Shown here: one piece after another, positions 3,861 to 55,658 of the stretch
Numbering within the stretch: position 1 is the first letter of the stretch
How the letters are laid out: the number at the start of each line of letters is the position of its first letter
Origin: Flectonema sp. DT1601
Taxonomy: Eukaryota
Assembly (NCBI GenBank): GCA_964019425.1
Contig: OZ025795.1
Span: 1,364,001 to 1,428,000 of the forward strand
DNA length: 64,000 nucleotides
Reading direction: 5' to 3'
Notes under the pieces: generated by a model
Seen by the model: only the letters and a program-made list of their open reading frames with translations
Told to the model about the DNA's origin: nothing
Database searches by the model: none
Translations under genes and position numbers: made by a program

Positions 3861-6800
3861 ATGGCTCAGGCCGTAACAGTTGCTGTCCGAGTACGTCCCT
3901 TCAATGACAGAGAGAAAGCAGAAGGAGCTCAGAATATAATTCAAATGAGCGGAGGTACAAAGACGACAATCGTTGGAGATCAGGGAAAGAGTCACACATT
4001 TAGTTTTGATCATTCGTTTTGGTCTCATGATGTCAACGGAGATAGACACGACTCTCAAGAAGATGTGTACCAAGCCCTTGGATCAAAGATTCTCTCTTCG
4101 GCAATAGATGGATACAATACTTGTCTCTTCGCATATGGACAGACTGGTTCTGGTAAGACTTACACTATGCTTGGGTATGGTGAAGACACTGGTGTTATTC
4201 CAAGACTCTGCAAAAGCCTATTCGAGACTTGCGACAAAAAACGTGATGACGAAGCTGGAGACTGGGATTGCCGAGTTCAGGTTTCCTATTTAGAAATTTA
4301 CAACGAGAAATGTCGTTGCTTACTAAACCCAAACAGTAAGGAAGTAAAGCCTAGAGAACACCCAGCAACAGGACCATATGTCGAGGGATTGACAACTGTA
4401 ATCGTAAGCACTTTTGAAGAAATCGAACAACTTATGGATGAAGGAAATAAAACTAGAACAGTGGCATCGACTGCTATGAATGCCACAAGCTCTCGATCAC
4501 ATGCTATTTTCACAATAACTTTCACACAATTTTCGAACCGAAACGCTGATCCCGACGGTAAAGGTTCTGAAAAGGTTTCAAAAATCAACCTCGTCGACCT
4601 CGCTGGTTCCGAGAGAGCCAACAAAACAGGAGCCACAGGAGCCACTTTAAAAGAAGGAGCGAACATAAATAAATCATTAGTATGTCTTGGGAAGGTTATT
4701 GCTGCTTTGGCAGATCACAAGAAAGGTGCGCACATCCCGTTCAGAGACTCTTCCTTAACTTGGTTATTAAAGGAAAACCTTGGTGGAAATAGCAGAACGA
4801 TTATGATGGCGGCATTGAGTCCACATGTTACTAACTATGAAGAATCATTATCAACGCTGAGGTATGCTGACAGAGCAAAGAGAATAAAAACACACGCAGT
4901 CGTAAACGAAGATCCGACTTCAAAAAGAATAAGAGAATTGACTGAAGAAGTTGACAGACTAAAACAGCTACTGACAAACACTAATATTCAACCAACTCAG
5001 TCTAAGACACAATCAACTGAAGAAGAAGAAGAAAATGAGTACACCTCTCTATCAGCTGCAGAGCAATTAGCACTCACAGTTGCGGCATTAGAAGATGCTG
5101 CTATGCCTTGGGAAGATAAACAAAAAAAGAATGAAGAAATTCAAGAAGAACGTCACCAAGCTCTTATTGAGTTGGGAATCGGAGTTGAAGTAGATAAGAA
5201 CAACCCGTCGCTTATTAATTTAAATGAAGATCCATTCATGAATGAATGTTTAGTTTATTTCTTGAAATCTGGAGAAACAACGATAGGATCATCACCAACT
5301 TGTGATATTACTATTCAGGGAGACTTACAATCTCATCATTGTACTATCACTACGTCGACAGATGAAATAAAACTTCAATCTACATCATCTGATGCAAACA
5401 CTTGTGTAAATGGACTTGAAGTAACTTTTGATAAACCTCTACAGCTACAACCGAGGGATAGGATTATATTTGGAGATCGTCACGTCTTCAGATTGAATCA
5501 TCCTTTAGTAGAACAAAAACAACGTGACGAGGGCAGTATTAATAACAACAGGTTCGATTACCAAATGGCCATAAACGAAAAGTACGAAACTTTTAAAAGA
5601 AATGTAATGCAAGAAGTCCAACGTGAAGAGAGAAGAAGAGAAGAAGAAGTTCAACAGCAGATTGATGATTTAAAAAAAGAAGAAAGACGTCGAGAAGAAG
5701 AAGTTGAACAACAACAACTATCTCGTATTGAAGCAGAGCTGAGAGTTAAAGAATTGGAAGAAAACTTAAAACAAACAAATGAAATATCACTACCGATGCA
5801 GAATTTAACTGGAACAGCACCAACAGTACCAACACCCAATAAGTTGGCTCCCGCAGGTATTGCCGCACAGCAAAAGGGAGCTCTACACACTTCAACAGGT
5901 GGGAGAATTAAATATGTTGATGTCGGATTGTTCTCAGCCAACCGAAAACATGTAAGCAGAGTACCTCCCCAACTCCTTCGTAAGTATAAAGTGATATTAA
6001 TAGGTCATGAAGAAGTTGGTAAGACATCAATTAAGAAATGTTGGCAAAGCGGAGATCCAAGATTCTTTAAAAAACTCCCCGACGTAATGTGTACTACGGG
6101 AATTGAAGTTCAAGAGCACCGTTTGAAGTACGAAGGACACGGAGCTGGAAAGCCAAGTGATGATGACTTGACTTTATCAGTTCTTGACTTTGCTGGGCAG
6201 GAAGTGTATCACAGTCACAGTTTGTTTTTATCACCGAGATCGATGTTTGTTTTTGTTTGGAACATGAGTAACTATGAAGATGGTCAAATGGCTGAATCAG
6301 AAGAATCGAGAATGATGTCCTGGCTTGATGAAGTCTACTCAAAGGCTCCTGGCTCTTCCGCTGTACTCCTCGGAACTCACAAAGATGAACTACCAAGTCA
6401 AAAGATTAGTAACTTAAATGCTATTCTAAATAACGTCAAAGCAAGAGTTGAAGAATACGTTCAGAGCATTCGCATAGCAGATGAACCAGAAAAAGATATT
6501 CGTGTTGTCGGATCGTACGCATGCAGTTGCAAGAGTCGTGGAGCGTGGGGTGGTGAATTTCAATCGGAAAAAGGTGCGAAGATGAGTGAACTACTCAGGG
6601 CAATTGGAGGGCAGGCTTTTAAGAATTGTCTCGCTGATAAACAATACCCAAGCGGTGCTATTCCGGGAAGACACATTCAATTTTTACGAGAGTTGGAAAG
6701 ATTAAAGAGTGAGAGAAAAAAACTACTTCTTCCTATTCAGGAATATGCTCAACTCGCATCTGACTTTGGGATTGAAGATCAGGGAGAGCTCAGAGACTGT

Positions 6801-8051
6801 ACAAATCTATTCCATTCGTGGAATGTAATTTATTTATTCACACAAGCAAAACGTCTTCTTGATCACCCATACATCTTTCTCCATCCTCTGTGGTTAAGTC
6901 ATATGGTTTCAGCTTTGTTTTCAATGGCGCACTTGCTCTACACTCCTCCAGCAGCTCGTAAGTACATCGGTGGGCTGAATTATAATCCAGAAGAGGCTCT
7001 TCGTGTTGATATGGGAAGACTACGTAATGGAGAATTGACTCTCTCTTTAGCAAGAGTGTTACTAAGTAGAAGTATAAAAGATATCAGAAATGATAAACAA
7101 GATGCTATGGTAGAAGACGTTGATTTAGAAATGTGTTTACAGCTACTCATCTCAATGGATTTAGTTTATCAAAGAGTTCTTCCTTCAGAATCAGATGATT
7201 CGGATGAAGAGACTAGTCAGTATTACGTCCCTTCATTGTTTCCTCTTAATCATCCTCCTTCACTTAAAGCTGTAGTTCCATATTTGTTTCAAAAGGGACT
7301 GTTCAGAATGTACATGTTTAATATTTTCCCAAAAGAATTCTACTACAGACTGGTATGCAGACTACAACACTTAATGATACCAATTTCTGTACCAGTTCCT
7401 GAAGGGATCACTATCGATATCGGTGAGGATGTGAAATACCTTCCTCCTAACTACGATCATCAAGTTCGAAACCACTGGAAAGATGGAATGTGGATAGGAA
7501 CTCAAGGGATTCGTGCATTTGTATATCAAATTGACACTATGATATACGCTGTCTTTTCACCTTCTGGTATGGGACAAACCGGAGAAGTTTCACAACAAGA
7601 ATTTATTGATTATTTCGATGAAGTAATCAACACTTTAGCAGACGAGTACGATGGACTTTCAATGTCTTGTTGTCAGCCGTGTGTTAATGGAGAATGTGAG
7701 AACTGGTTTGAAGTTAAGATCCTTAACGAAGTATCAAAGAAGGATGGATCTATTCAATGTCAGAACTGTCAGGAAGATAAACCCGCCAAGACCATCCTCC
7801 GAGGAGGAGGTTTAGAACGTTCTCCTGGTCCAGAATGGAATGATCTTTGGCCTAACCTGACAGCAGCATTAGGTACTGATAAAGCAGCTGCTCTCCTCTG
7901 TAGTTTGGAATGTATTATAAACGAGTCGGATATTTCTGATGCTGGTGAGTCATATTTATCGAAAGAGGACTCTGAATGTGATGTCTGGGCTGATAAATTC
8001 ATCAGCGTTCTGATGTACATCGCGTTCTGTCAGCAACAGTCTTACAGTTAG
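3861..8051 (+). CDS. Kinesin-3 (Unc104/KIF1-like) motor with FHA, coiled coil and C-terminal Roc GTPase-COR-like region
   Basis: Motor motifs VAVRVRP, GQTGSGKT, SSRSH, DLAGSER; LINLNED and RIIFG of the kinesin-3 FHA region; second P-loop GHEEVGKT with TTGIEV, DFAGQE and GTHKD. Confidence 0.92.
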   Translation: MAQAVTVAVRVRPFNDREKAEGAQNIIQMSGGTKTTIVGDQGKSHTFSFDHSFWSHDVNGDRHDSQEDVYQALGSKILSSAIDGYNTCLFAYGQTGSGKTYTMLGYGEDTGVIPRLCKSLFETCDKKRDDEAGDWDCRVQVSYLEIYNEKCRCLLNPNSKEVKPREHPATGPYVEGLTTVIVSTFEEIEQLMDEGNKTRTVASTAMNATSSRSHAIFTITFTQFSNRNADPDGKGSEKVSKINLVDLAGSERANKTGATGATLKEGANINKSLVCLGKVIAALADHKKGAHIPFRDSSLTWLLKENLGGNSRTIMMAALSPHVTNYEESLSTLRYADRAKRIKTHAVVNEDPTSKRIRELTEEVDRLKQLLTNTNIQPTQSKTQSTEEEEENEYTSLSAAEQLALTVAALEDAAMPWEDKQKKNEEIQEERHQALIELGIGVEVDKNNPSLINLNEDPFMNECLVYFLKSGETTIGSSPTCDITIQGDLQSHHCTITTSTDEIKLQSTSSDANTCVNGLEVTFDKPLQLQPRDRIIFGDRHVFRLNHPLVEQKQRDEGSINNNRFDYQMAINEKYETFKRNVMQEVQREERRREEEVQQQIDDLKKEERRREEEVEQQQLSRIEAELRVKELEENLKQTNEISLPMQNLTGTAPTVPTPNKLAPAGIAAQQKGALHTSTGGRIKYVDVGLFSANRKHVSRVPPQLLRKYKVILIGHEEVGKTSIKKCWQSGDPRFFKKLPDVMCTTGIEVQEHRLKYEGHGAGKPSDDDLTLSVLDFAGQEVYHSHSLFLSPRSMFVFVWNMSNYEDGQMAESEESRMMSWLDEVYSKAPGSSAVLLGTHKDELPSQKISNLNAILNNVKARVEEYVQSIRIADEPEKDIRVVGSYACSCKSRGAWGGEFQSEKGAKMSELLRAIGGQAFKNCLADKQYPSGAIPGRHIQFLRELERLKSERKKLLLPIQEYAQLASDFGIEDQGELRDCTNLFHSWNVIYLFTQAKRLLDHPYIFLHPLWLSHMVSALFSMAHLLYTPPAARKYIGGLNYNPEEALRVDMGRLRNGELTLSLARVLLSRSIKDIRNDKQDAMVEDVDLEMCLQLLISMDLVYQRVLPSESDDSDEETSQYYVPSLFPLNHPPSLKAVVPYLFQKGLFRMYMFNIFPKEFYYRLVCRLQHLMIPISVPVPEGITIDIGEDVKYLPPNYDHQVRNHWKDGMWIGTQGIRAFVYQIDTMIYAVFSPSGMGQTGEVSQQEFIDYFDEVINTLADEYDGLSMSCCQPCVNGECENWFEVKILNEVSKKDGSIQCQNCQEDKPAKTILRGGGLERSPGPEWNDLWPNLTAALGTDKAAALLCSLECIINESDISDAGESYLSKEDSECDVWADKFISVLMYIAFCQQQSYS

Positions 8052-8312: not shown

Positions 8313-8478
8313 AAGTAACTACACTCCAGAATTGCTAACTGGAGTGCTTCAGTCTCTATAGTTGACTGACTACTACACCATAACTGATGATGAGAGAATA
8401 GAGTAAAGAGGTTTATGGATTACTCTCGAAACATAATCACTGTATCTTTAACAGATTGTTGAATTATCGTTTAGGATA
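8313..8478 (+). repeat. Dispersed structured 3'-flank repeat, copy 2
   Basis: Shares the tacactccagaattgctaactgg start and the ~95-nt core with copies 1 and 3. Confidence 0.9.
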
Positions 8479-10994: not shown

Positions 10995-11001
10995 AAAAAA
11001 A
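10995..11001 (-). terminator. RNA polymerase III terminator (T7 run) of tRNA-Val
   Basis: T7 on the - strand beginning just past the tRNA discriminator base. Confidence 0.75.
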
Positions 11002-11002
11002 C

Positions 11003-11076
11003 TATTCCCATCCGGGCTCGAACCGGAGACCTTCGCCGTGTTAAGGCGACGTCATAACCAACTAGACCATGGGAAC
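11003..11076 (-). tRNA. tRNA-Val(AAC)
   Basis: Reverse complement reads GTTCCCATGGTCTAGTTGGTTATGACGTCGCCTTAACACGGCGAAGGTCTCCGGTTCGAGCCCGGATGGGAATA: acceptor stem GTTCCCA/TGGGAAT, anticodon arm TCGCC-TTAACAC-GGCGA, T arm with GGTTCGAGCCC. Confidence 0.96.
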
Positions 11077-11097
11077 TACGAAACCAACGATTCTAAA

Positions 11098-11141
11098 GCT
11101 ACAGTTTCTGTACTTTATTGCTACAGTTTCTGTACTTTATT
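11098..11141 (+). repeat. Perfect 22-bp tandem duplication at the tRNA/retrotransposon junction
   Basis: gctacagtttctgtactttatt at 11098-11119 and 11120-11141. Confidence 0.95.
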
Positions 11142-11173
11142 GTGTGTGATTTACAAAAAAAAAAAAACTAAAA

Positions 11174-12538
11174 ATGTCCGGAACACAAGAATCGATGGTC
11201 GTGCAGCAACAAGAGCAAGCACAGCAATCAATGATGCAACAGCAGCAAGCACAGCAATTAATGGCACAGCAACAGCAGGCACAACACTTAATGATGCAAC
11301 AACAGCAGCCGCAACAGCCAACACAAAGCCAGCCGGTACAACAACAAGCGCAGAACAATTCCAACAATTGCTTTTTACATGGCAACTGGACGCTTGAGAC
11401 TTTAAGTCAGTCGCAAACTCACCTTCCCAACAATGTCCCACCAATCTCCCCCTTTTCGTTTATGAGCTCACCAATGATAGCGTTTAAACAGTATCTCAGA
11501 ATAACAAATCTGTATTTTAAAACAATAAACATTTTAAGTTTAAAAGAAATGCACTTCACAGTTTCAAAAGACAATGTTGTAAACGTTTTTTCTTGTTTAT
11601 TGGAAATCAAAAAAGAATGTGCAGCTGATTTCTTAGAAATATCCGGCCAACACGGCATTTTCTTTTCCGAACACAAAAGCACTCAACACCTCTCCTCCTA
11701 CTACACAATTGTGTGGACCCCTGACACACCTTACACCCAGCTTAAAAAGATAGCAATCGATCTCAATAAAGACCCAAAAAACAAAGGAGCCCTCGGGCTC
11801 ACAATGTACCAAGGAAGAAGCCTTGGGATACGAATTAAAAAAGAATCAGAAACAAACTTTCGTTCAAATTTTGGAGTAAAATGTCCGACTTATTTCGAGA
11901 TAAGCGGCATAAGCAAAGAGAACGCAACGTCATTTGACGTTGAATTTTTTTTTGATTTAATGAAAAAAAAAATTAAATACTGTTATAAAAAAAAAAGGGA
12001 AGAGTCACATGTTGTGAGCTCGTACGAGAATCTGCAGTCTTGCGGATCAGTAATCGTTAAAAAAATAACTCAACCCTCAAAAGATGAAAGAAGAATTGAA
12101 AAGAACTCAATAGAAACGAAAACAGACCAAACTGAAAAAAAAGATATTAACGAAAAAGGAAAAGGAAAAGGAAAAGGGAAAGGGAAAAAAGGAAAGAAAG
12201 GAACTAAGGGAGAGAGCGGTAAAGGAAAAAAAACTGTTTTGTCATCACCGTCAACCTCAGTAACCCCGTCAATAGAACAAACGGACATTTTAAACCAGCT
12301 AAAATTATTGTTAGATGCACAAACAAAGCATCTAACAACAAAGATCATTGGCACTTTTCTAGCCGATGATCCGAAAAAGCAAGCAGAAGCTTGGGATGCG
12401 GAAATAAACCCGCAAGAAAAAGAAGGTTTTCTACAAGGATCGATGGACGATGACATCGATCTTGTGAAACAGAAGCTGGACAAAGAAAACGATGGTGATG
12501 ACAACACAAAAAGAAAAAAAGAAGAACCTCCGAATTGA
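11174..12538 (+). CDS. Retrotransposon 1 ORF1 protein
   Basis: 454 aa directly upstream of the pol ORF; Q-rich N-terminal repeats, KGKGKG tract, and a YTIVW...GLT...LGIRI block resembling ORF1 of element 2. Confidence 0.8.
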   Translation: MSGTQESMVVQQQEQAQQSMMQQQQAQQLMAQQQQAQHLMMQQQQPQQPTQSQPVQQQAQNNSNNCFLHGNWTLETLSQSQTHLPNNVPPISPFSFMSSPMIAFKQYLRITNLYFKTINILSLKEMHFTVSKDNVVNVFSCLLEIKKECAADFLEISGQHGIFFSEHKSTQHLSSYYTIVWTPDTPYTQLKKIAIDLNKDPKNKGALGLTMYQGRSLGIRIKKESETNFRSNFGVKCPTYFEISGISKENATSFDVEFFFDLMKKKIKYCYKKKREESHVVSSYENLQSCGSVIVKKITQPSKDERRIEKNSIETKTDQTEKKDINEKGKGKGKGKGKKGKKGTKGESGKGKKTVLSSPSTSVTPSIEQTDILNQLKLLLDAQTKHLTTKIIGTFLADDPKKQAEAWDAEINPQEKEGFLQGSMDDDIDLVKQKLDKENDGDDNTKRKKEEPPN

Positions 12539-12616
12539 CTGTTTCCTTATAATTTATATCTTTTTTATTTCTCGAACCTTCTTTTGTGTGGAGACATCCA
12601 CCCGAACCCCGGTCCA
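12539..12616 (+). other. 2A-like (StopGo) peptide cassette immediately after the in-frame UGA
   Basis: Translates LFPYNLYLFYFSNLLLCGDIHPNPGP in the common ORF1/ORF2 frame; matches D(V/I)ExNPGP except for E to H. Confidence 0.78.
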
Positions 12617-15600
12617 CAAAAAAAGCAAAAAAACAGTGAGCTGAGAATTGTATCTTTTAATGTTTGTGGTCTCAAGTCGAAATCCGACGAAATAACTTTT
12701 TTTTTACAAAATATAAAACCTGACCTATTCATGGTTCAGGAAACATTGTTAAAGGATAACGACGAAACCATTAATTTTAATGGGTACAAGTGTCTCAGAA
12801 GAGACCGGAGAATTCCGGTAAAAAAAAACGCACCCGTCAGAGGTGGTGGATTGGCAATTTTTTACAAAAACAGCCTAAGCGTGACAGCATTCGCTGTTGC
12901 ACAACACAGCCAAGACTGCACTGAAGTCCAGGGCATTTTTGTGTCAAATTCAAAACAAACTGTAAGGGTATACAACGTGTACAGACCACCGGTAAGCCAA
13001 TCAACCTCTGATAGGTCCCCCTCTTTTGATATGAATAGTATTTTTCTTTTTAATAAAAATGATAAAGTAGTTATCGCGGGGGATCTTAACGCAAGGCATC
13101 CACTCTGGGACCCGAGAGACGAGTCAAACACAAATGGCCATGAAGTCTCGACTTTTCTAAACAATAACCAGTTTGAATGCTGCAACGTTAAGGAAATCCC
13201 CACAAGACCAAAATCAAACACTTCTCCTGATGTTGTTCTCCAAAAAAACTGTGATATTGGCAACTGGACGACGCTCGAATCTCTATCAAGCGATCATGTA
13301 CCAATGTATTTTTCTCTTTCTTTTTTTTCGGATTCGATAAACAGAGCGAACGGTGCAACGGTTTTTTCTTATAATTGGAACAGGGCACTGTGGCCAAACT
13401 ACAGCTCCCACCTCGAAAGGGTGGCGAAGCGACTTGAAAAGATTCAAGATAACCAGAAATTATCAATGGAATTCATAAAAGAATTAAAAAATGCGTTACG
13501 GATCTTTGTACCAAGGATTTATTTGAAAGGAAAGTCACCAAAGAAGTGGTGGAACACGACGGTTGCATCTAAGTTTCATGAGTTCAACGAGTCACATTGT
13601 GACCAACGGGATGATCTTACAGATCTGTCGCAACAGGGAAAGTCAATTTTTACATCTTTAAAAAAAGAACTCAAAAAAACAGTCGTTGATGCCAAGAATC
13701 AACAGTTTAAAAAAAGCCTTAAAAAAGACAAGTCTATTATTGAAGCTTTTGAAGACATAAGAGGCCTTGATGGAAGATCAAGACTTAAAGAAATTCGAGA
13801 AATCACCTGTGGTGATAAACTTGTTACAGATGATGTGGAAAAAGCATCAATTTTCAATAATCAATTTTTACAACGTGTTGGTAACATCAAAGAAAAAACA
13901 AAGACAAAGAAAATAGAAACAGACCCTTCTGATTTTACACCATTTACACAACATGAACTTAGAATCCAATTGAGAGGAATGGCTCTGGAAAAGAATTCAC
14001 CAGATGGCGTTCAAGGTATTCTTCTTAACCATTTGGGACCTAGAATGCTAAACATTTTACTTAAGATTTTTAACAATTCGTGGAAACATTCTGTTGTCCC
14101 GAGTGATTGGAAAGACACACACTGGATCCCTGTTTTAAAAAAAGGAAAACCCCCAAACCTCCCCTCTTCATATAGAATGATCTCTCTCACCCCTTTTATT
14201 GCGAAATTGATGGAAAGAATGGTGAAGGAACGTCTTACGTATTTTATGCAATCACCGAATGAAAAGAAAACTGACGGTATTGGTTTCAACCAAACTTCTT
14301 ATCGGAAAACGCGTTCTTGCCGGGAAAACATCCTATATGTTACGGACAGACTTAGATTTCTTAAACACCAAAAAAAGTCAGCGGCCCTTGTTCTTCTTGA
14401 TATCGAAAAAGCTTTTGATAGTGTGAACCATGATCTTCTCCTTCAAAGGATGGTAGATCTTGGAATACCAAAACATTTTATAGCCTGGATTCAGGCCTTT
14501 CTTAAAAAACGAAGAGCAGCGGTTGTTGTTAATAATGAAAAAGGTTCTTACCACAATGTTTATTCTGGCGTTCCACAAGGAACAGTTTTGTCGGCTCTAC
14601 TTTTTACTCTGTATATTGAAAAAGTCGCAGAAAGACTAGATATTACGGTTGCTAAGTATGCGGATGATATTGCTTTTGTAGTTGATGATGAAGGGAAAGG
14701 TTTTACTTATCATTTGGCAAAAACGAAATATTTCTTTAATGAGATTGAAAAGGATCTAAACGAATTAAAATTAAAAGTAAGTTATGAGCCTGACAAAACA
14801 AAACTTGTGTATTATCCCTACTCCCCAAATTCCCCACTACAAACACCTTTCACTTTTACTTCAAATTTAACAAAAAATATTGTTCCATGTGTTGATAGCG
14901 CCAAGCTTCTTGGGGTGATCCTTGATAACAAGCTCGATTGGAAACAGCATATCTCGTATATTTGTAGAAGAGTTAATCTTCGCTTAAGGTATCTGAAGCT
15001 TGTCGCATCAAAAGCATGGGGACAGTGTACTGCAACTTTGCGTGAGGTGTATGATTTGTATATTCGACCTGTCATAACAAACTCGTGTGAAGCTTTTTAT
15101 CCTGAAGTTAGGTATAAAAAGATTCACATGGACAGGCTTCTCTCTTTACACCTTAGGGGTGCGTGCTATGTCTTAGGTGCCTTACCACCAACAAGGGAAA
15201 CAAGAGATAAGATCTTTTTTGAGGCACAACAACAAAGTATCAACACCCATTTGAGACTTGAAACTGGTAGATGGTTCGCCAAAATGGCGCGAATCACGTC
15301 CCCTTTATTAAATGTCTTTATTCCACCTGAAAGAATATCCTCAACACCCATTGATTCTTTTACTCGTTTAGGAATGAATGTTCTGAAAGAACACAACCTT
15401 CTATCACTCAGTTTTGAGAAATATCCCATTTACGTTCATCCTCCATGGAGTTTTTCAAATGATTTCAATGTTTTTAAACCAGAAATGCATGTTAGAAAAA
15501 AAAAAGACAAAAAGAAAAATAAAAAAGCCTGTGAAGCTGTTCTTAATGAAATAAGGAAAGATTATGAACCAGTCTTAGAGGTATATACCGATGGTGCCGT

Positions 15601-16483
15601 TGTTGAAGAACGCGGTGCTGCGGGTGTGTACATCATAGACAGCGAAGGAAATGAATTTCTCACAAACAAAAGTGAAGCAGGAATAATCTGCACCTCTTTT
15701 AGGGCTGAAATGATGGCGATCAAAAACGCTTTTGTTTTACTTTTTAAGGAATTTAAACCGCCGGAAAATGCGTCAGTTTTATTTGTGTCAGACTCCTCCA
15801 GTGCCTTGATGGAACTGGAAAAAGGGGGAACAAAACAGAAAACGAGACTAGGAAGCCGCATCTGGCAGTTTATTGAATTTTTCAACAATAAATTCAAAAC
15901 AAAGTTTATTTTCCAGCATGTCTTTTCTCACTGTGGTATTGTCGGAAACGAAGAAGCAGACAAACTAGCCCAAAACATTTCATTAAAAAAAGATGAAGAA
16001 ACCCTTTTAAAACAAAAAAAAGTTCCCATAGACTACAGCACCCATGTAGCTAAACTAAAACACAGAATAAAAGAAAAATTTGACCCCCGTCCTTTCCCAT
16101 CTGAAACTGAAAGAGCGGAAGAAATTCTGATTTCACAACTCAGAATTGGCGACTGTAAACAAACACAAGGGAAATGTCCTAGGTGCAGAGAAAAAGACTC
16201 TGTAGAGCACCTGTTAGCAAAATGCTCAAAGTACAGAAAAGAGAGGAGGATGTATCTCCAGAAAGACTCTCTAACACAAGAAGAGTTAAAGGATTGTCTT
16301 TCCACTGTACAAGGACTAGAGAATGTTTTTCTTTTTATGTCATCTGCAAGAAGATATGTTTTTCCAGAAAAAGAAAAGAAAAAAGAAAATTTGAGTCAGG
16401 AAACAAAGAAAGAAAATGAAGAAAACGTTATCCTTCAACCCACACTTTTCAATACTGTGATTCAAAACTCACAACTGACTTGA
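12539..16483 (+). CDS. Retrotransposon 1 ORF2: AP endonuclease, reverse transcriptase, RNase H, CCHC zinc finger (no AUG start)
   Basis: APE motifs SFNV, VQET, GDLNA, SDH; RT motifs YRMISL, LDIEKAFDSV, GVPQG, YADD; RNase H motifs YTDGA, SDS, HCGIVGNEEAD; CPRC...HLLAKC. Frame is open from 12539. Confidence 0.95.
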   Translation: MFPYNLYLFYFSNLLLCGDIHPNPGPQKKQKNSELRIVSFNVCGLKSKSDEITFFLQNIKPDLFMVQETLLKDNDETINFNGYKCLRRDRRIPVKKNAPVRGGGLAIFYKNSLSVTAFAVAQHSQDCTEVQGIFVSNSKQTVRVYNVYRPPVSQSTSDRSPSFDMNSIFLFNKNDKVVIAGDLNARHPLWDPRDESNTNGHEVSTFLNNNQFECCNVKEIPTRPKSNTSPDVVLQKNCDIGNWTTLESLSSDHVPMYFSLSFFSDSINRANGATVFSYNWNRALWPNYSSHLERVAKRLEKIQDNQKLSMEFIKELKNALRIFVPRIYLKGKSPKKWWNTTVASKFHEFNESHCDQRDDLTDLSQQGKSIFTSLKKELKKTVVDAKNQQFKKSLKKDKSIIEAFEDIRGLDGRSRLKEIREITCGDKLVTDDVEKASIFNNQFLQRVGNIKEKTKTKKIETDPSDFTPFTQHELRIQLRGMALEKNSPDGVQGILLNHLGPRMLNILLKIFNNSWKHSVVPSDWKDTHWIPVLKKGKPPNLPSSYRMISLTPFIAKLMERMVKERLTYFMQSPNEKKTDGIGFNQTSYRKTRSCRENILYVTDRLRFLKHQKKSAALVLLDIEKAFDSVNHDLLLQRMVDLGIPKHFIAWIQAFLKKRRAAVVVNNEKGSYHNVYSGVPQGTVLSALLFTLYIEKVAERLDITVAKYADDIAFVVDDEGKGFTYHLAKTKYFFNEIEKDLNELKLKVSYEPDKTKLVYYPYSPNSPLQTPFTFTSNLTKNIVPCVDSAKLLGVILDNKLDWKQHISYICRRVNLRLRYLKLVASKAWGQCTATLREVYDLYIRPVITNSCEAFYPEVRYKKIHMDRLLSLHLRGACYVLGALPPTRETRDKIFFEAQQQSINTHLRLETGRWFAKMARITSPLLNVFIPPERISSTPIDSFTRLGMNVLKEHNLLSLSFEKYPIYVHPPWSFSNDFNVFKPEMHVRKKKDKKKNKKACEAVLNEIRKDYEPVLEVYTDGAVVEERGAAGVYIIDSEGNEFLTNKSEAGIICTSFRAEMMAIKNAFVLLFKEFKPPENASVLFVSDSSSALMELEKGGTKQKTRLGSRIWQFIEFFNNKFKTKFIFQHVFSHCGIVGNEEADKLAQNISLKKDEETLLKQKKVPIDYSTHVAKLKHRIKEKFDPRPFPSETERAEEILISQLRIGDCKQTQGKCPRCREKDSVEHLLAKCSKYRKERRMYLQKDSLTQEELKDCLSTVQGLENVFLFMSSARRYVFPEKEKKKENLSQETKKENEENVILQPTLFNTVIQNSQLT

Positions 16484-17086
16484 TTTCTCAAGCTTCCAAA
16501 TTAACCAAAGTAGCACCTACACCATGGGGATGGTCTGATTGTTGATTGACTGATGGGCCGATATAGATTGGACACAGATCGAGAGTTTTTGAGAGATCTT
16601 AGATGAAAGTCCGCACCTTTCAGGCCATCCCCAAAAAGCACATAGCAGCTACAGCTATGTCAATTCAAATTGCGACGAGCTGCAACTTCGACATGAAGTT
16701 TTTCGTTATTGTTCTTACCTTCTCCACATATTTACATATGTGATAAGTATAAGTCATATCTTACGATTGACAATTCCTCCCCATAAATAAATTTCTTTTT
16801 ATTATTTTATTTTACACCTGCCTTACTAACTTGGGGAGAAAGAAAGGATGAACAATGGGCCTCTTATGAGGTGGGCAATTGCCCTGGACCCACATTAAAT
16901 GTACGCGTGTTTTGCGTCAGCCCGTTGCTGTAGAAAAAGAAGAGACAGTTTCAGGTAGTAATGAAAAAAAAAAAAAAAAAAAAAAAAAGAAAGGAGAAAA
17001 AATATTTACTTCTTCTCCTGGTCAACTCAAGAAAGATTTTTCTTTCTCTTTCTTTGCCTTCAATGATGTTAAAAAAAAAAATTAAA

Positions 17087-18811
17087 ATGGCTGGTAAGAA
17101 AGCAATGCGTCCGCAAGATAGAAGGGCTGCGGAAAGGAGAGAAAGAGAAAGGAAAGAGGCGAAGAAAATGAGGGAACAAGCCAAGAATGAAATCCGGGAA
17201 GAAGAAGAGAGGACACAAAAACAGCAAGAAGGAGACGAAGACGTGGTGATGGGAGGATCACCAGAAGTATCAGAGGGAGAAGCGATGGAAGTGGAAGCAC
17301 CACAAACAAAAGAAGCAAGCCAAACGGCTGGTCCGAAACCGGAAACAAATCCTCCAACTCTGAAGCCAGAGCATTTCGGATGTAAACCATCAAAAATTAT
17401 AAAGATGGAAGACGGAATCAACAGCTCAACAGACGGCTTATCATTAGTACTGTCCCAACAAGCCTCTAAACTTGGAGAGGAATTCTACAAGACAGCTACG
17501 AAAACGAAGAGACTAACCCTGGTCTTCACCAAACCGCCAACGGAGTTAGCATTAAAATACGCGACAGCATCCCAACAGATTCAAACACCTGTCCAGATGG
17601 CAGTGGGACTAAGAATAAGATCATGGTGGTTTGTGACTTTTACCGGAGCAACCTACACCCCAACACTAATAGTGGCAACAAACATAAAGCCACCGATCAC
17701 TCACGAACTCATCGCGTGGGCTACAGCAAAGGAGTTAGGAGGAGATGCTATCAGAAACCCAGCATCGCTTACTGCAAAAATCAAGGCAGTGGTGGGTGAT
17801 CAGGGACGGGTCGACACAAGGACATTCCGGATAGTTGGAAAGGGGGATTTTAGTGAAGTCACAGTCCTACCAAACGATGAAAAGGCAGCAATCGCACTGA
17901 TGCACAACTCAGGGAGTAACAAAGTTTACTTCAGGATAAAATCGATAGAGGGCCTGACCAAGCATGTCTATGAAACAGTATGGCTTGACAGGAAAACTTC
18001 GAATGAGGAAGCCATGGGAGTCCTGAAGGCACAACAAGACATGTGCATGGGGCTGACTACCAACTATGGGAAGATAGGGATAAGGGTGAGTGCCTCTGCA
18101 AACGTAGAGAAAGTACGGAAGGGTGCCGGGAAATTCGCTGCGCAAGTCTACGGTGCTGGACTGTACCGTATCAGTGGTGCACAGTACAGGTGGTCGAACC
18201 GGCTCCAGGGAATGCTCTTGGAAGCGGGATTAAATTCTAAATTTATTCGCATGGAGAAAGGCGACTTCTTGGTCGCCCTCGATAAAAGTCCGAAAAGCCA
18301 GTTCTTACAATGTGGTGAGACCCTGATGTCTATTGAGAAAATGGAGCTGCCAGAAGACCAAAAACAACCAAAACCAGCCGTACAAAAGTATCGAGATGCG
18401 AAAATATCTTATGCGGAAGCAACTAAAAAGACACTGCAAGGAAACAAGCAGCCCCAACAACAAGAAAATAAACTGCCCCCATCGCAGGGAAAAACGCAAG
18501 AACTGAAGAAAGTAGAAGATGGTCTCAAGACTATGAAGGAAAGAACTGACGAGACGCTAGCAAAATTACAAACTGAGGTAGCTGACTTGCAAACTAGATT
18601 GGATGAAACGATGTCAAAAATGACGCAGATAATTGAAGGACTGACCAATGCGACAAAGAAAAATGAAGAAATGATTGTTAAAAATTATCAACAAATGTTG
18701 AATGCAATATCTCAAATTGCAACCGCCGTCAACAAGATAGAAGCCAAGGTAGGGCTAAGCGGAACTACCCACCAAGTAACAGCAAACCAAAACCACTGTC
18801 AAAATGATTGA
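17087..18811 (+). CDS. Retrotransposon 2 ORF1 protein
   Basis: Likely start MAGKK at 17087 (the upstream extension of the ORF call runs through the poly-A); charged N-terminus, YETVW...GLT...IGIRV block, C-terminal heptad-like coiled coil. Confidence 0.8.
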   Translation: MAGKKAMRPQDRRAAERRERERKEAKKMREQAKNEIREEEERTQKQQEGDEDVVMGGSPEVSEGEAMEVEAPQTKEASQTAGPKPETNPPTLKPEHFGCKPSKIIKMEDGINSSTDGLSLVLSQQASKLGEEFYKTATKTKRLTLVFTKPPTELALKYATASQQIQTPVQMAVGLRIRSWWFVTFTGATYTPTLIVATNIKPPITHELIAWATAKELGGDAIRNPASLTAKIKAVVGDQGRVDTRTFRIVGKGDFSEVTVLPNDEKAAIALMHNSGSNKVYFRIKSIEGLTKHVYETVWLDRKTSNEEAMGVLKAQQDMCMGLTTNYGKIGIRVSASANVEKVRKGAGKFAAQVYGAGLYRISGAQYRWSNRLQGMLLEAGLNSKFIRMEKGDFLVALDKSPKSQFLQCGETLMSIEKMELPEDQKQPKPAVQKYRDAKISYAEATKKTLQGNKQPQQQENKLPPSQGKTQELKKVEDGLKTMKERTDETLAKLQTEVADLQTRLDETMSKMTQIIEGLTNATKKNEEMIVKNYQQMLNAISQIATAVNKIEAKVGLSGTTHQVTANQNHCQND

Positions 18812-21800
18812 GATTTGGTCCAATAACATAAGATCGATACTACAAAATGAAAACTTCTTCCAATTAAATCGATCGTTAAGAGAGCACAAGCCAGAAATTG
18901 TTCTACTACAAGAAACATGGCTCAATTACGGAAAATTTCTAAATATAGATGGTTATATAATAATTCGAAGAGACAGCCTTCTGAAGGTAGGATACCGAGG
19001 TCTGGCCATACTTGTCAGAATGGATATTAAAAATTATGTGACAAAACTCCCCGACATCTCATACGACCAAACTGAGATACTATCTGTAGAATTGCGATCA
19101 ACACCGCCATTAAAAATACACAATGTATATCACCCGCCTAACGTAACGGCAACCACATGGAAGTTACCAACAGAGCCAGGAACACTGGTAGCAGGCGATA
19201 TCAACGGACATCATGAGATCTGGTCAAAAGGAAAGATGAATTCAGCAGGAACAAGCTTCTATAATTGGTCATTAGAAGCTGCCATGGAAGTATTAAACGA
19301 GCCCCAGCAGATAACGAGACCATTGAGCTCATCCTCCCCAGATATTATTGCTCTGGATAATTCAATGATGGCAAACATAGGACTGCTAAATGGATGGAGT
19401 AGCGACCATCTTCCAATAAGTGTAAAGATTGAAAACATACACTTGACGAAAACCAAACCACAATCGAACGAGATGTGGCAATGGAAATGGAAGTGTGCAA
19501 AGTGGCATGCATACTCGGAGGTTTTAACGACGGCGGCAACGAAGTTAAAGAATATTGAAACAGTGCAAAAACTTGCAACAAGGATCTCTGTAGAAATTCT
19601 GAAGGCTGCGAAACAAACCATACCGGGCTATAAGAAAAGGACGCAAACCACCTTCTCAGTGAGGGATCCAGAAATAGAAAGACTGCTTGATGAACCCAAC
19701 CAGGACAAAGTTGACAAGGATGCCATTGCGGAAGGCATCAGAAAAATTAAAAGAAACATCATCGAATGTGACATGACTGGGATGGACTACCAATGGGCTT
19801 TCAGAAAAGTAAAGCAACTTGAAGGGGGCATTGTTGATAATAACATTAGCGAATTAGAACATGAAGGCAGTACAACAACTGATCCAAAAGAAATGGCAGA
19901 CATATTTACCACGGCATACGCGACACAATTCAATCTGGTAGACGACGAAGTGCCCTCCTTGGTATTTGAGAACAAACCAGGGGACGAAGGCAATGAAGAA
20001 TTCACAATGAGAGAACTAAAGCGACAGCTCAAGAAATTAAAAGACAAGAAAGCACCTGGACCGGATGGGGTGTGGAACACTATGTTAAAGAAACTCCCAG
20101 AAACATTTATGGTGCAACTCTTACGGCTGTTCAACATGACTTGGGAAAAGTCGGCGGTTCCGAGATCTTGGAAGTATGGGATAGTAGTTCCAATCTTAAA
20201 ATCGGGAAAGGACAAGAAACGTGTACTCTCTTACCGACCAATAACATTAACGTCAGCAATAAGCAAGTTGTTTGAGAAGATGATGGCAGAAAGGATGCAT
20301 CATTTACTTGGGGACAGGATGAGTGCGCGGCAAGCCGCATATAAAAGAGGGCGCAGTGCCGTAGAAAATCTCTGCATGATAACAGAGAGACTACTAGATG
20401 GAAGGTACCGAGGTAGGGAATCGATGTTAATGACGTTTGACCTGCAGAAGGCATTCGATGCCGTCCAACCGAAAATTCTACTGAAGAGGATGTCTGAAGT
20501 TGGGATACCGGCGAAATACACAAGATGGGTCCAGAGCTATTTGACTGGGAGAAAGATCACAACCAGAGTAAACGGCGAAAAGGGAACATTCAAACACATA
20601 CAAGTCGGAGTACCCCAAGGAAGTGTCCTAGGACCACAGCTATTCTCGATATACATCGAAAGCCTTATACGAGAATTGAATAGGTATAAACCAGCAGTCT
20701 TTGCAGATGATGTTGGGCTCGTGATGACATCTCCAGATGTTAAAGGACTGGAGGACAAAGCTAACACAGCAGTACGCATCTTCTCAAATTGGGCCGCAGC
20801 ATCCCACATTTGTATAAACAAGAGCCCGGGTAAAACAGAGTTCATACATGTGAGGCCGGATACCGATAGCCAAGAAAATAAGTCTCCACAAGTGCTATAC
20901 CCGGAGGGGCACACCTTCAAATATGTCGTCACAACAGCAGAGGCCATCCGAAAAATGCTAAATAATCAGGACTCAACTACTATAGGCAATTCTAAAAAGG
21001 CGATAACACATTTCTATGTGGTTCCGCAGCATAAAATAAAACGAAAATTACCGACGACAGAAACTGTATTGGTAGACATGCAGATGGAACCTAGTAAATG
21101 CTCACAACTGCAAAAGGTTCGCACCAGAGGAGACATCCTGAGGATGCTGCAAGGAACTGGATCTGGTCTCAAGGCTTTTGCATTTTCGGTGGTGGACAAA
21201 CTACATGAAACGGATGTAGTAAGATACTTGGGAGTTCTGTACGACAAAAACCTCGACTTCAAAACTCACATGCGAAAGATGATGACGGCAGCCTCCAGAG
21301 GACTGGGGCTCCTGCTAAGACTCTCCAGGATGGGATGCAGGAAGAGAACCCTCATCTGTGTTCTGGTGACCGTTGTAATGGCGAGAGTGCTCTATGGGGT
21401 TGAAAGTTTTGCCTGGCTGCTGCCAAAGAGAGGTGACGTCAGTCTTGAGAGGCTAAACATCTTAATAAACAGAGCCGCTAGACAGGTAACGGGATGTCTG
21501 CCAAGCACCAGGCTGAGGAACTTGTACCATGAAGCAGATATGCCGAAATTACAAGAACACATACGCTACAAGATGTGTAGGGCCTATGAAGAATTCAAAT
21601 TAAGTCCCCACCTACCAGCTTGTAGCCTCACAATGACGGAGGGAGGCCTAAACTACCCACCAAAAACAGCTTGGGGTCGCATAGTTTGGGATGAATATGT
21701 GTCGGGGATCCCGGGACTCGACAAACACAGAAGCTCGTATCACTCGGAAATCAATCCAAAGCACTATAAGATGCGATCATGGAAGGTAACTAATGCAATG

Positions 21801-22769
21801 GAATTCAACTACTGTTTTGGAAAAGAAGAGGCAAAAGACAAAGAAGCCGGTCTACCAATTGAAGACGTGAAGGTGTACACAGATGGGTCTATTAGACATA
21901 GGACGAAGACGTACATGACTAAGTCAGGAGCATCTGTGATAATAGTGAAGGGTAAGGAAGTTAGCATGACCGGATTCAGAATACCTGTAGCAGGAAGCTC
22001 CTACAGAACTGAACAGATAGCCGTGGAACAAGCGATGAGAATACTCCTGAAAAACAAAAAGGCATCCGAAGGAATACTTCCCACAACAAAGACGCATATT
22101 CTAACTGACTCAATGTCGCTAATACAGGCACTTGAGCGAGGACCTGAAGAACAGAAATCTGCTACAAACGCATCAATCTGGAAGTTAGCACTGAAACTGG
22201 AACACAGAGGTGTTAATATTAACATGCAGTATGTCCCAGCACATATGGATGTGCTGTATAATGAAATAGCAGACAAGGTGGCAAAACACGCTGCAGGTAC
22301 GATAAAGAAACCTCCAGATGACAGTGTGGTACTCGAGAGTTTAGTTACTAGACTGGATATGGGAACCCTTATGACTTTTCACAAGAGAAGAAAACGAGAG
22401 GAGTGGATTGGAGCCGGCGAACAGAGGCATCCACCTTTTGTAGAAGAACTGACGAGACCACAAGAAGTCCTAATGTCCCGCTTCAGAGTTGGACACTGTA
22501 GATCTCTTAAACTAAAAGGAATAAACGAACAGTGCATCTTCTGTCATGGAGATACTGCAACACCGCATCATGTGCTTTTCAAGTGCAACCACTGGTGTAT
22601 CCAAAAGATGAGATCATTGTACATACACAGCATGATTAATACCGAAACTGGTGAAGTAGTGAGTAAAGTAGAGGACTGCTTCTTAAAGGAGAATCAACGC
22701 AACATGTCCAACTTTGTAGTGGTACTGGACCAAATAGCTGAAATGCTCGGAAGACCTGGAAATCCATAA
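18804..22769 (+). CDS. Retrotransposon 2 ORF2: AP endonuclease, reverse transcriptase, RNase H, CCHC zinc finger
   Basis: Motifs LQET, GDING, SDH; KAPGPDG, YRPITL, DLQKAFD, GVPQGSVLGP, FADD, YLGV; YTDGS, TDS, NEIAD; CIFC...HVLFKC. Confidence 0.95.
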   Translation: MIEIWSNNIRSILQNENFFQLNRSLREHKPEIVLLQETWLNYGKFLNIDGYIIIRRDSLLKVGYRGLAILVRMDIKNYVTKLPDISYDQTEILSVELRSTPPLKIHNVYHPPNVTATTWKLPTEPGTLVAGDINGHHEIWSKGKMNSAGTSFYNWSLEAAMEVLNEPQQITRPLSSSSPDIIALDNSMMANIGLLNGWSSDHLPISVKIENIHLTKTKPQSNEMWQWKWKCAKWHAYSEVLTTAATKLKNIETVQKLATRISVEILKAAKQTIPGYKKRTQTTFSVRDPEIERLLDEPNQDKVDKDAIAEGIRKIKRNIIECDMTGMDYQWAFRKVKQLEGGIVDNNISELEHEGSTTTDPKEMADIFTTAYATQFNLVDDEVPSLVFENKPGDEGNEEFTMRELKRQLKKLKDKKAPGPDGVWNTMLKKLPETFMVQLLRLFNMTWEKSAVPRSWKYGIVVPILKSGKDKKRVLSYRPITLTSAISKLFEKMMAERMHHLLGDRMSARQAAYKRGRSAVENLCMITERLLDGRYRGRESMLMTFDLQKAFDAVQPKILLKRMSEVGIPAKYTRWVQSYLTGRKITTRVNGEKGTFKHIQVGVPQGSVLGPQLFSIYIESLIRELNRYKPAVFADDVGLVMTSPDVKGLEDKANTAVRIFSNWAAASHICINKSPGKTEFIHVRPDTDSQENKSPQVLYPEGHTFKYVVTTAEAIRKMLNNQDSTTIGNSKKAITHFYVVPQHKIKRKLPTTETVLVDMQMEPSKCSQLQKVRTRGDILRMLQGTGSGLKAFAFSVVDKLHETDVVRYLGVLYDKNLDFKTHMRKMMTAASRGLGLLLRLSRMGCRKRTLICVLVTVVMARVLYGVESFAWLLPKRGDVSLERLNILINRAARQVTGCLPSTRLRNLYHEADMPKLQEHIRYKMCRAYEEFKLSPHLPACSLTMTEGGLNYPPKTAWGRIVWDEYVSGIPGLDKHRSSYHSEINPKHYKMRSWKVTNAMEFNYCFGKEEAKDKEAGLPIEDVKVYTDGSIRHRTKTYMTKSGASVIIVKGKEVSMTGFRIPVAGSSYRTEQIAVEQAMRILLKNKKASEGILPTTKTHILTDSMSLIQALERGPEEQKSATNASIWKLALKLEHRGVNINMQYVPAHMDVLYNEIADKVAKHAAGTIKKPPDDSVVLESLVTRLDMGTLMTFHKRRKREEWIGAGEQRHPPFVEELTRPQEVLMSRFRVGHCRSLKLKGINEQCIFCHGDTATPHHVLFKCNHWCIQKMRSLYIHSMINTETGEVVSKVEDCFLKENQRNMSNFVVVLDQIAEMLGRPGNP

Positions 22770-23130
22770 TTTAAAGATGCGGTTCTTAGACCAAATGAGG
22801 AAGTAAACTGAACTCTTTAGTAATTGATAAAGAAAGAAAACAAAGAAGATACGAAGCCTACGGGAACCCCCCATCCCATCCCCAATCCCCACAAAAAGAA
22901 AGTGTACAGAAGAAAGAAAGAACAACCGCGCCTAACAGCGCAAACAGCAAAGCAGGTCGAAGGAACCTGCTGTGCACACAAAAAAAAAAAAAAAAAAAAA
23001 AAAAATGTTCATATCTATAAATATTTCCCCCCTCAAGATTTCTGTGTACCAATGTTCACATAAGAATCTCAGGAGCTCAAGCCCCAGACGGAGTTTTTTA
23101 GTTGGATGGCCTTGGAGAAAAAAAAAACCC

Positions 23131-23280
23131 CATGACCAATTACATATGACATATCTTCGCACTGTGGTCTTAAAAGATACGAAAGAGCTGACAGCTTGCA
23201 GCGAATGCAATAAATCAGATACAGTAAAACAGCTATTATAAATGAAGTTTCACTTGACGAGGAGAGGACGGAATCATTGT
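23131..23280 (+). pseudogene. Probable decayed 3' fragment of a third non-LTR retrotransposon ORF2
   Basis: Translates QLHMTYLRT...CSECNKSDTVKQLL*, paralleling ISQLRIG...CPRCREKDSVEHLL of element 1. Confidence 0.5.
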
Positions 23281-23548
23281 AATATCTCAGGTACGAATGA
23301 GGAAAGCCTGCTTCACTACCGAGCAACAAACTTGTTGGAATTGAGTGGCGGAAAGAGAAGGAATCCTATCGGAAGAAGACATAAGTGAACTCACCTTAAG
23401 TTTTGGGAGAATGTGGTATTTGATAAACCTTCTGGACAAAACGAAGCATTGTCGGCTGTGCGCTATCTTTATTAACAGTCAGTAGTTAATGTTAGTATTT
23501 CTTTCTCTAAACAGCTATAACAAGTACAATAAAAGTGGATCCACTATA

Positions 23549-31542: not shown

Positions 31543-31635
31543 CATAGTCACTGTATCCTTAACAGATGTTAAACTATCGCTATGTTACGCGATACAAAAC
31601 AGTTGTATTTTACAAATTCAAACATTCAATCCCCC
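31543..31635 (+). repeat. Dispersed 3'-flank repeat, diverged partial copy 4
   Basis: catagtcactgtatccttaacagatgtt...aaattcaaacattcaatccccc matches the 3' half of copy 1. Confidence 0.75.
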
Positions 31636-41788: not shown

Positions 41789-41988
41789 CAGAATTGCTAC
41801 TGGAGTGATTCAGTCACAATAGTAGACTGACTACTTCTACACCATAACTGATGATGAGAGAATAGAGTAAAGAGGTTTATGGATTACTCTCGAAACATAA
41901 TCACTGTATCTTTAACAGATTGTTGAATTATCGTTTAGGATATGATACGAATAAAGTTTGTGTTTTAAAAATTCAACTCCCCCCCAAT
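41789..41988 (+). repeat. Dispersed structured 3'-flank repeat, copy 3
   Basis: Core essentially identical to copy 2; 3' part matches copy 1. Confidence 0.9.
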
Positions 41989-46800: not shown

Positions 46801-46855
46801 CTTGTTTTTGCATTAAAAAAAAACGAACTGCTCTCCAATTTTGCGAGAAGTGGTT

Positions 46856-46890
<35 letters not shown>

Positions 46891-48908: not shown

Positions 48909-48943
<35 letters not shown>

Positions 48944-49554
48944 GACAAAATGTCACCTCAATACGATGGAGTGGATCCTTTACTTACCTTCTCCTCGGTG
49001 ATGGAAGGGGTAAATAAAAAGAGAGCTACCTTGTGTGTTGATGGTCACCACACTAACTGTGTGAAGACAAATAGCAATCGGGGTACTGACGGAAAGATCA
49101 GGTTAGAGCTACGAGTACTGTCAGAAAAGAAAAAAAAAAAAAAAAAAAACATTTATATTGTTTTCACTAGATGACTATTCTCCCTATCCTTTTATTTTAT
49201 ATTTCAAATTCGTTTTGGTTTATTATTCTTCGTCGCTTTTTTTTCCTTTTTTTTTTTTCCTTGATTTATTTTTCGGTTCGAAAAAAAATAAAATAAAATA
49301 AAATAAAAAGCATTCTAATATAACAATCCAACCACAACGGAATCGTTATGATGCTGAGCAAAGAACTTCCTTAGTAGGGCGAGTTTAAACAAAACCAAAA
49401 ACAGCAAACAAGTCTTAGACGGCTTTTTTAAGCTGTAAAAAAAAAAAAAAAAGCGACATTTTTTTTCTTCTTCTGTTTATGTTACGTCGATCATCTTTTT
49501 TGTCCTGAGTTTCATTCTTCTTTTTTATTATTTTCTTTTTCAGTAACACGATTG

Positions 49555-49586
<32 letters not shown>

Positions 49587-51211: not shown

Positions 51212-51246
<35 letters not shown>

Positions 51247-55358: not shown

Positions 55359-55396
<38 letters not shown>

Positions 55397-55605
55397 TAAT
55401 AATAGAAAACTGTTACCCTCCGTGAGCTTTTCCTAATCTTTGGCTCTCTGGAGTTTTTCAATCCATAAATAAAAAACATTATAACAAAAGTGATGGAATC
55501 TGAATTAATAAGAAAATTGACAGCAATTGTTTTTACAAAGACCACTTGTGTGCTGTTAGCTGCAGAACCTGCGCTGACAATAAGTTCTTTAAATCGATCC
55601 ATCAA

Positions 55606-55611
55606 ATGAGA

Positions 55612-55655
<44 letters not shown>
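55606..55655. repeat. (GA)n microsatellite
   Basis: Near-perfect GA dinucleotide run. Confidence 0.9.

Positions 55656-55658
<3 letters not shown>

Follow-up and report, generated by a model that had tools for sequence, protein, structure and literature searches.

What brings two non-LTR retrotransposons, with the relic of a third behind them, to lie one after another immediately upstream of a single transfer RNA (tRNA) gene? The question is raised by a 64,000-nucleotide stretch of Flectonema sp. DT1601 (contig OZ025795.1, positions 1,364,001 to 1,428,000; hereafter the window), in which two long interspersed nuclear elements (LINEs), here called element 1 and element 2, stand upstream of a tRNA-Val(AAC) gene. 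We find that a diplonemid LINE clade has a genuine hotspot of insertion at this site, with the geometry of the tRNA-targeting elements of amoebae. The most economical cause appears to be targeting directed by RNA polymerase III (Pol III), functionally like that of NLTR-A and TRE5 in a separate lineage, to which we assign a probability of roughly 0.6.

Three LINE families upstream of tRNA-Val(AAC)

The locus comprises the tRNA gene, copies of the spliced leader (SL), and open reading frames (ORFs) with APE endonuclease, reverse transcriptase (RT) and RNase H domains, each pair of ORFs being followed by a 3' untranslated region (UTR):

10995..11001, minus strand: run of seven T past the tRNA 3' end, likely the Pol III terminator (from the sequence)
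11003..11076, minus strand: intact tRNA-Val(AAC) gene (ARAGORN; Rfam 59 bits, E 6.7e-11)
11077..11081: 5-nt gap separating element 1 from the 5' end of the mature tRNA
11082..11120, plus strand: full 39-nt SL exon copy, the 5' end of element 1 (39/39 against the exon of the SL RNA gene on contig L085)
11121..11142, plus strand: 22-nt SL relic (SL positions 18-39), starting directly past the internal AG at SL positions 16-17
11174..12538, plus strand: element 1 ORF1, 454 amino acids, with a Q-rich N-terminus and no Pfam family (ORF list, domain search)
12539..16483, plus strand: element 1 ORF2 frame, 1314 codons, with APE, RT, RNase H and a Cys/His C-terminal motif
12578..12616, plus strand: 2A-like peptide preceding the APE domain of element 1, with H replacing the consensus E
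16484..16988, plus strand: element 1 3' UTR and 25-A tail (tail 16964-16988)
16989..17086, plus strand: spacer of 98 nt, former tRNA-upstream DNA and/or the 5' UTR of element 2
17087..18811, plus strand: element 2 ORF1, 574 amino acids
18804..22769, plus strand: element 2 ORF2, 1321 amino acids, with APE, RT and RNase H, overlapping ORF1 by 8 nt
22770..23005, plus strand: element 2 3' UTR, terminal hairpin and 26-A tail (tail 22980-23005)
23151..23326, plus strand: decayed relic of a family-B-like LINE, its RNase H end and the motif that follows (two collinear motifs)

A sequence-only reading of this locus had placed ORF1 of element 1 at 98 bp from the tRNA gene, head-to-head. That distance and orientation are right for the ORF1 ATG; the element itself reaches closer, since its 5' end lies at the first SL base, 11082, and element 1 therefore begins 5 nt from the mature tRNA. 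The same reading had element 2 in the same orientation within about 100 bp of the A-tail of element 1, and its ORF1 indeed starts 98 nt past that tail. The probable third relic proved real: in a frameshift-aware comparison with family-B motifs it scores 74, whereas 40 shuffles reach at most 41 and 38 other tiles of the window at most 45, and it extends past 23280, where the range given in that reading stops, to 23326. Detection depended on the query, as the broad clade profile gave only 5.4 bits and left the relic undetected, and elements 1 and 2 used as queries missed it as well. When genes and elements were masked, 14 clade proteins found the relic (E 0.011) as their sole match below E 0.1 across some 24 kb of non-coding sequence, a search that is not very sensitive in that the relic itself reaches no better than this value. 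The three insertions fall within about 250 bp of pre-insertion DNA. Directly past the tail of element 2, on the minus strand (23013-23066), we also observed a short peptide resembling the C-terminal motif of families D and E, with an E value of 0.002 locally and of 1.4-1.9, not significant, window-wide.

The members of the stack belong to three families (A, C and B-like). The two ORF2s share 28% and 24% identity over two aligned parts, and the two ORF1s gave no cross-match in a protein search. Identity of ORF2 to other copies of the same family is 96.6-100% for family A and 98.5-100% for family C, so that both families are young. Since elements 1 and 2 are both 97-100% identical to their family copies, they cannot be ordered by age, and the earlier proposal that older copies are pushed outward is supported by the relic, the most decayed and most distal member, and not by the other two. 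An RNase H domain is present in both ORF2s, as had been claimed, and the claim of no other RT in the 64 kb is borne out by the domain search of all 15 ORFs of at least 150 amino acids, in which none of the other 13 carries one. Long A-tracts are common in the window, with 14 other A/T runs of at least 20, and the element tails therefore needed independent support, which other contigs supplied: the 3' end and A-tail of element 1 recur on another contig, read in protein entry P0256, and those of element 2 recur on another contig, read in P0231.

The ORF2 frame of element 1 lies in frame directly behind the TGA of ORF1 and contains no ATG before codon 65 (12731), which is inside the APE domain. 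The 2A-like consensus DxExNPGP is described as N-terminal in ingi and L1Tc (PMC5814959). Its H-for-E variant occurs in element 1 and also in Perkinsela ingi, and is absent from element 2. To judge from this sequence arrangement, ORF2 of element 1 is likely expressed by read-through or non-AUG initiation, followed by 2A release; we presume that the ORF1 TGA stands in a read-through context.

The 5' end of element 2 falls somewhere within the 98-nt spacer, in which no SL sequence was found. An N-terminal extension of its ORF1 to the ATG at 16961, which directly precedes the A-tail of element 1, was considered and rejected, as no such form occurs in the protein collection; the called start is 17087. 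Atlas scores for this ORF1 are all at or below 0.8, and its single-sequence model (predicted local distance difference test, pLDDT, 37.8) matched no known fold at E<=0.001; RRM domains appear among its weaker matches. Family C ORF1 occurs in two subtypes of 574 and 630 amino acids (cluster P0249-P0259), whose N-terminal thirds differ and whose remainder is common. The subtypes look like domain swapping, which makes the N-terminal third a candidate region for target or host-factor specificity.

The spliced leader at the head of element 1

In Diplonema, genes are described as co-transcribed and a 39-nt SL as present on essentially all mRNAs (PMC10161547). The head of element 1 consists of a complete SL, the SL relic and a further 31 nt ahead of ORF1, and the relic starts exactly past the SL AG and ends exactly at the end of the SL exon. 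The full copy also agrees at 37 of 39 positions, compared by eye, with the SL given for 'Euglenozoa 14' in PMC3795323. These two copies are the only SL matches in the window, where 0.07 would be expected by chance. Neither is followed by a GT donor, and no SL sequence lies past the tail of element 1. Because it lacks a GT donor behind it, the SL exon in the window is no SL RNA gene; in the L085 gene, by comparison, a GT donor follows the exon, and the neighbours are 5S, U5, U6, 7SL and tRNA genes. We also considered the 22-nt repeat as a target-site duplication and rejected this, the repeat being the SL relic.

A complete SL followed by a relic that begins after the SL AG makes it likely that element 1 was copied from trans-spliced RNA, and in two rounds. 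We are accordingly confident that its template was an SL-spliced RNA, and two rounds of trans-spliced copying are the likely origin of the SL and its relic. In such a course, a parent copy with a genomic SL would have been transcribed, trans-spliced at AG16-17 and reverse-transcribed to the first base. Tandem SL relicts on dinoflagellate retrogenes have been read in the same way, as repeated retroposition (PMC6050394). L1Tc is described as having unspliced RNA and an internal promoter with a ribozyme (PMC5814959); among the nine Rfam matches at E<=5 here, there was no ribozyme family. Weighing against this origin, the SL was observed in just a single copy, and element 2 lacks it.

Other conceivable sources of the SL and its repeat are insertion into an SL RNA gene, as in CRE and SLACS, a template jump or an error of assembly. 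CRE-clade elements are indeed reported to use SL genes as their insertion site (PMC12278014), and frameshifts in many copies of the assembly may be indel errors. We nevertheless consider these origins very improbable, given that the tail has no SL behind it, that neither SL copy retains a GT donor and that the repeat is bounded so exactly by the SL AG and the exon end. Two further facts speak against them: the endonuclease is APE and not the restriction-like endonuclease (RLE), and the two ORF2s are both intact, each being found letter for letter on two contigs.

If element 1 did arise from trans-spliced RNA, an SL with its relic would be a third way for a LINE to keep its 5' end, beside internal promoters and ribozymes, and the SL head would mark the insertion point to the single base. 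Our literature search returned no SL-capped autonomous LINE in Euglenozoa, with most subscription journals outside its reach. A search of seven supplementary files of PMC10161547 found no SL sequence or LINE-tRNA data, and the main repeat text is perhaps not among them.

Genomic copies of the diplonemid SL were also observed on viral contigs, namely IMGVR_UViG_3300046534_001516 (12 sites) and GVMAG-M-3300027833-19 (3 sites), comprising a 238-kb contig and two contigs from a giant-virus metagenome-assembled genome (MAG); the loci concerned are L081-L084, L087-L089, L091-L097 and L099-L103. The copies are exact over 17-39 nt from the first SL base, and eight of the 15 sites have 38-39 nt unbroken. 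A AAAATTGA-like motif, which we take to be an early promoter of giant viruses, precedes each copy by about 17 nt, and an ORF follows most of them; two further short viral SL matches (L090, L098) have no AAAATTGA-like motif. This suggests that the viruses hard-code the host leader at their transcription starts and so mimic host mRNAs. A literature search returned nothing on viral copies of a host SL, and a scan of the viral contigs for the LINE clade found none. Two contigs binned in bacterial MAGs also carry an SL. The eukaryotic L085 (1-2578) holds the SL RNA gene, 5S rRNA, U5, U6, 7SL and about 11 tRNA genes in 2.6 kb, and is likely diplonemid contamination with a compact cluster of non-coding RNA genes. 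L086 (1-2186) has a euglenozoan-type SL at its start and then an ORF with RT-like motifs; by eye these resemble CRE/SLACS elements, a family label we presume rather than derive.

Stacking in other copies and the cause of the hotspot

The protein collection holds 18, 10, 39, 31 and 91 entries of families A, B, C, D and E, respectively, of which we examined 15 from each of the four large clusters and all 10 of family B. The entries lie on at least 39 contigs, 16.8 Mb together and apparently from a single assembly, and several contigs carry two or three copies of one family. Junctions were read from gene calls that run out of truncated copies into flanking DNA, with 85 cluster entries aligned, five further representatives added and shifts within an element's own frame removed. 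This yielded seven distinct 5' junctions with a foreign extension of 13-54 residues (P0069, P0231, P0238, P0239, P0250/P0258, P0256 and P0424). Two of the seven start with the 3' end and A-tail of a co-oriented clade member. In P0256, a family-A 3' end and tail are followed by about 31 foreign codons (~95 nt) and then by a truncated family-C copy of the other ORF1 subtype. In P0231, a family-C-type end and A-tail, which family D may share, is fused directly, without a spacer, to a truncated family-D copy. Taking the 189 entries as an upper bound on copies and a genome of at least 17 Mb, we estimate that two stacked junctions in seven would occur by chance less than once in 10,000, and stacking is therefore a habit of the clade. 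The ~95-nt spacer in P0256 and the 98-nt spacer in the window are not expected from insertion into tails.

The junctions were also scored for tRNA sequence. Upstream of the truncated family-A copy P0069 we found an antisense fit resembling an A-box and B-box at 16.3 bits (real tRNA controls 17-27; reached by 5 of 468 shuffles), which would put the 5' end of a tRNA-like sequence some 17-19 nt away from the junction. The P0250, P0256 and P0424 junctions gave low tRNA scores, and tRNA readings made by eye in P0238 and P0239, both of family E, were rejected, with 53 and 31 of 110 shuffles scoring as high. Most extensions are shorter than 100 nt, too short to reach a tRNA 85-100 bp away. In a metagenome scan that sampled 2 of 64 parts we found distant relatives only, at 22-37% identity, and a tRNA call at one of 80 loci. 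At that locus (L018, 1965-2039), a tRNA-Ile(GAT)-like sequence stands head-to-head a few bases from a 5'-truncated LINE on an unrelated metagenome contig. As far as seen this LINE is not of the diplonemid clade, and the tRNA could be a tRNA-derived short interspersed nuclear element (SINE); we do not use it as evidence.

Pol III-directed targeting could proceed as follows. Element RNA would come from read-through RNA polymerase II transcription, the long ORFs of the window all lying on the plus strand, and the host would add the SL at an AG; with the genomic SL of a parent copy offering AG16-17 as acceptor, the product would be an SL plus the 22-nt relic. The SL would thus rebuild a defined 5' end in every cycle, without the promoter and ribozyme of L1Tc and ingi. 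An element protein, by analogy with TRE5-A that of ORF1, may tether the particle to TFIIIB or TFIIIC, whereupon APE would nick the DNA upstream of the tRNA gene and target-primed reverse transcription would begin. Successive insertions would displace older copies outward. The insertion window of family A would lie a few bases from the tRNA, and that of family C, much less surely, roughly 85-100 bp out. The fuller proposal, in which tRNA targeting evolved on its own, with windows of about 5 and about 85-100 bp by family, and at least one family dispenses with a promoter and ribozyme by trans-splicing onto a carried SL, is tentative, and we consider it clearly less probable than targeting as such.

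Several observations weigh against Pol III-directed targeting. Only a single tRNA locus is seen as DNA, and co-occurrence of the families on contigs is at random level for an assembly of 17-40 Mb, becoming significant only at about 60 Mb or more. The P0069 box test was designed post hoc, with the peptide already seen, and concerns one of seven junctions; as a whole tRNA this junction fits poorly, at 8.6 bits where controls give 35-47 (5 of 110 shuffles). No tRNA was found in the 84 readable nt of P0238, and the P0231 junction is equally consistent with insertion into tails. At the locus itself, no target-site duplication longer than 6 nt was found, A-runs aside, and 4-nt candidates are within chance; the inverted fragment past the tail of element 2, if real, would break strict co-orientation.

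Two other causes have to be weighed against these facts. New copies might insert at the ends or A-tails of earlier ones, so that stacks grow anywhere and this one was seeded beside a tRNA by chance. The direct fusion in P0231, the contigs with two or three copies of one family and the tRNA-free flank of P0238 all fit such nesting. We nevertheless judge it unlikely, as no clade sequence was detected at the window's 14 other long A/T runs, spacers of about 95-98 nt separate a family-A tail from family C at two loci, and the 5-nt distance to the tRNA is left to chance. Moreover, with an intact copy beside the tRNA and a relic at the distal end, the stack must have grown at least partly toward the tRNA. 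Alternatively, no tether need be involved: the tRNA may offer nucleosome-free DNA or a polycistron boundary where insertion is easy or does little harm, with copies elsewhere purged. An accumulation at strand-switch regions is reported for L1Tc-type elements (PMC4748587), repeat regions with many transposable elements are described between the gene clusters of D. papillatum (PMC10161547), and co-orientation with a plus-strand gene cluster would explain the orientation of the elements without Pol III. Accessibility predicts a broad spread of distances, however, and not 5 nt, and no clade copy could be detected in a stretch of some 13 kb devoid of long ORFs (43.8-56.7 kb); we consider passive tolerance less probable still than nesting. 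Pol III-directed targeting thus remains our preferred cause, and with young families and several intact copies, both the targeting and the SL ideas can be tested with the existing assembly.

All 15 ORFs of at least 150 amino acids, both elements included, are on the plus strand, and the domain search recognised ordinary eukaryotic genes among them (kinesins, a TBC protein, a kinase and SMC). The neighbouring gene to the left of the tRNA shares 89% identity with a protein of Flectonema neradi, and F. neradi transcripts are the closest named relatives of both LINEs. The host is therefore a diplonemid near to that F. neradi isolate but distinct from it. One of three kinesins in the window is a single 1396-amino-acid ORF (3861-8051) that combines kinesin, FHA and Roc-COR domains. 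The stretch of about 13 kb at 43817-56728 without an ORF of at least 150 amino acids contains many long A/T runs in both directions and may represent a cluster boundary or else a long intron. Four plus-strand intergenic copies (2657-2857, 8313-8478, 31543-31635 and 41789-41983) of a dispersed non-coding repeat, about 100-200 bp long, share 80-95% identity; the repeat may be a SINE/SIDER-like element or a family of small-RNA genes. At gathering score, Rfam gave no match to this repeat or in the whole window.

Placement of the clade and comparison with known systems

Families A-E fall into a single RT group, together with six F. neradi transcripts and an unnamed sequence, supported at 0.98 by FastTree (127 rows) and at 97 by the SH-like approximate likelihood ratio test (SH-aLRT) in a quick tree of 56 of those rows. 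The RT phylogeny proposed in the sequence-only reading was thereby run, and it sets the clade apart from the ingi elements of Trypanosoma and Perkinsela, with SH-aLRT of 97 and 98 for the two groups and weak deep branches; the 56 rows include no named L1, TRE or NLTR sequences. A PDB sequence search, whose only matches were RT domains, with similar scores for R2, L1 and group II intron proteins, leaves the clade unplaced. As the five families fall in one RT group, a shared targeting habit could be inherited.

An independent origin of the targeting, as had been suggested, would rest on domain content and host distance. The part of that suggestion concerning a lineage of its own is supported by the separation from kinetoplastid ingi. 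The RNase H domain, which it had pointed out, is not new by itself, because NLTR-A and NLTR-B elements upstream of tRNA genes have been described with it (PMC5006619). The table in PMC5911963 lists tRNA-directed non-LTR elements only for dictyostelid amoebae, and our literature search returned no report of such elements in Euglenozoa. If the reading is true, tRNA targeting would have arisen independently in diplonemids, whose genome is transcribed polycistronically, and the case would show how far Pol III sites serve as a safe harbour in general.

The closest likeness is to NLTR-A and NLTR-B, drawn here by description. According to PMC5006619, Dp_NLTR-A of Dictyostelium purpureum lies 2-6 bp upstream of tRNA genes in the 16 copies measured, and Pp_NLTR-B of Polysphondylium pallidum 39-64 bp upstream in three copies. 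Both ORF2s of our stack share the APE, RT and RNase H content of these elements, and element 1, at 5 nt, falls inside the 2-6 bp window at one locus. NLTR-A has two ORFs with a 13-bp overlap (PMC5911963), as against 8 nt in element 2. The amoebozoan elements differ in having no SL and in showing their targeting over many copies, whereas the present case is euglenozoan, carries an SL and concerns one locus. TRE5 elements insert upstream of tRNA genes in opposite orientation (PMC5911963), and TRE5-A of Dictyostelium discoideum resembles our elements in this geometry, in its two ORFs and in its A-tail. It differs in being of L1 type, with APE, RT and a zinc finger and without the RNase H found in both ORF2s here, and in lying 40-54 bp from the mature tRNA rather than 5 nt. 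In TRE5-A, contact between ORF1 and TFIIIB has been shown; in the diplonemid elements such a contact would be a prediction by analogy.

With ingi and L1Tc the stack shares the APE, RT and RNase H domains and a euglenozoan host; a 2A-like peptide ahead of APE occurs in element 1, in the H-for-E variant. As far as PMC5814959 describes it, L1Tc has a single ORF, where both elements here have two, and a 77-nt Pr77 promoter with a ribozyme like that of hepatitis delta virus and unspliced RNA without SL, where element 1 has a genomic SL. The relict-SL retrogenes of dinoflagellates have the genomic SL with tandem SL relicts in common with element 1, but are described as host genes (PMC6050394) rather than an intact diplonemid LINE. 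CRE, SLACS and CZAR likewise have SL sequence on the 5' side of the element, but combine an RLE endonuclease with insertion into SL RNA genes; the diplonemid elements encode APE and show neither feature. Collectively, these comparisons indicate that the stack works like NLTR-A and TRE5, yet is to be filed under neither of them, nor under ingi/L1Tc, nor under CRE.

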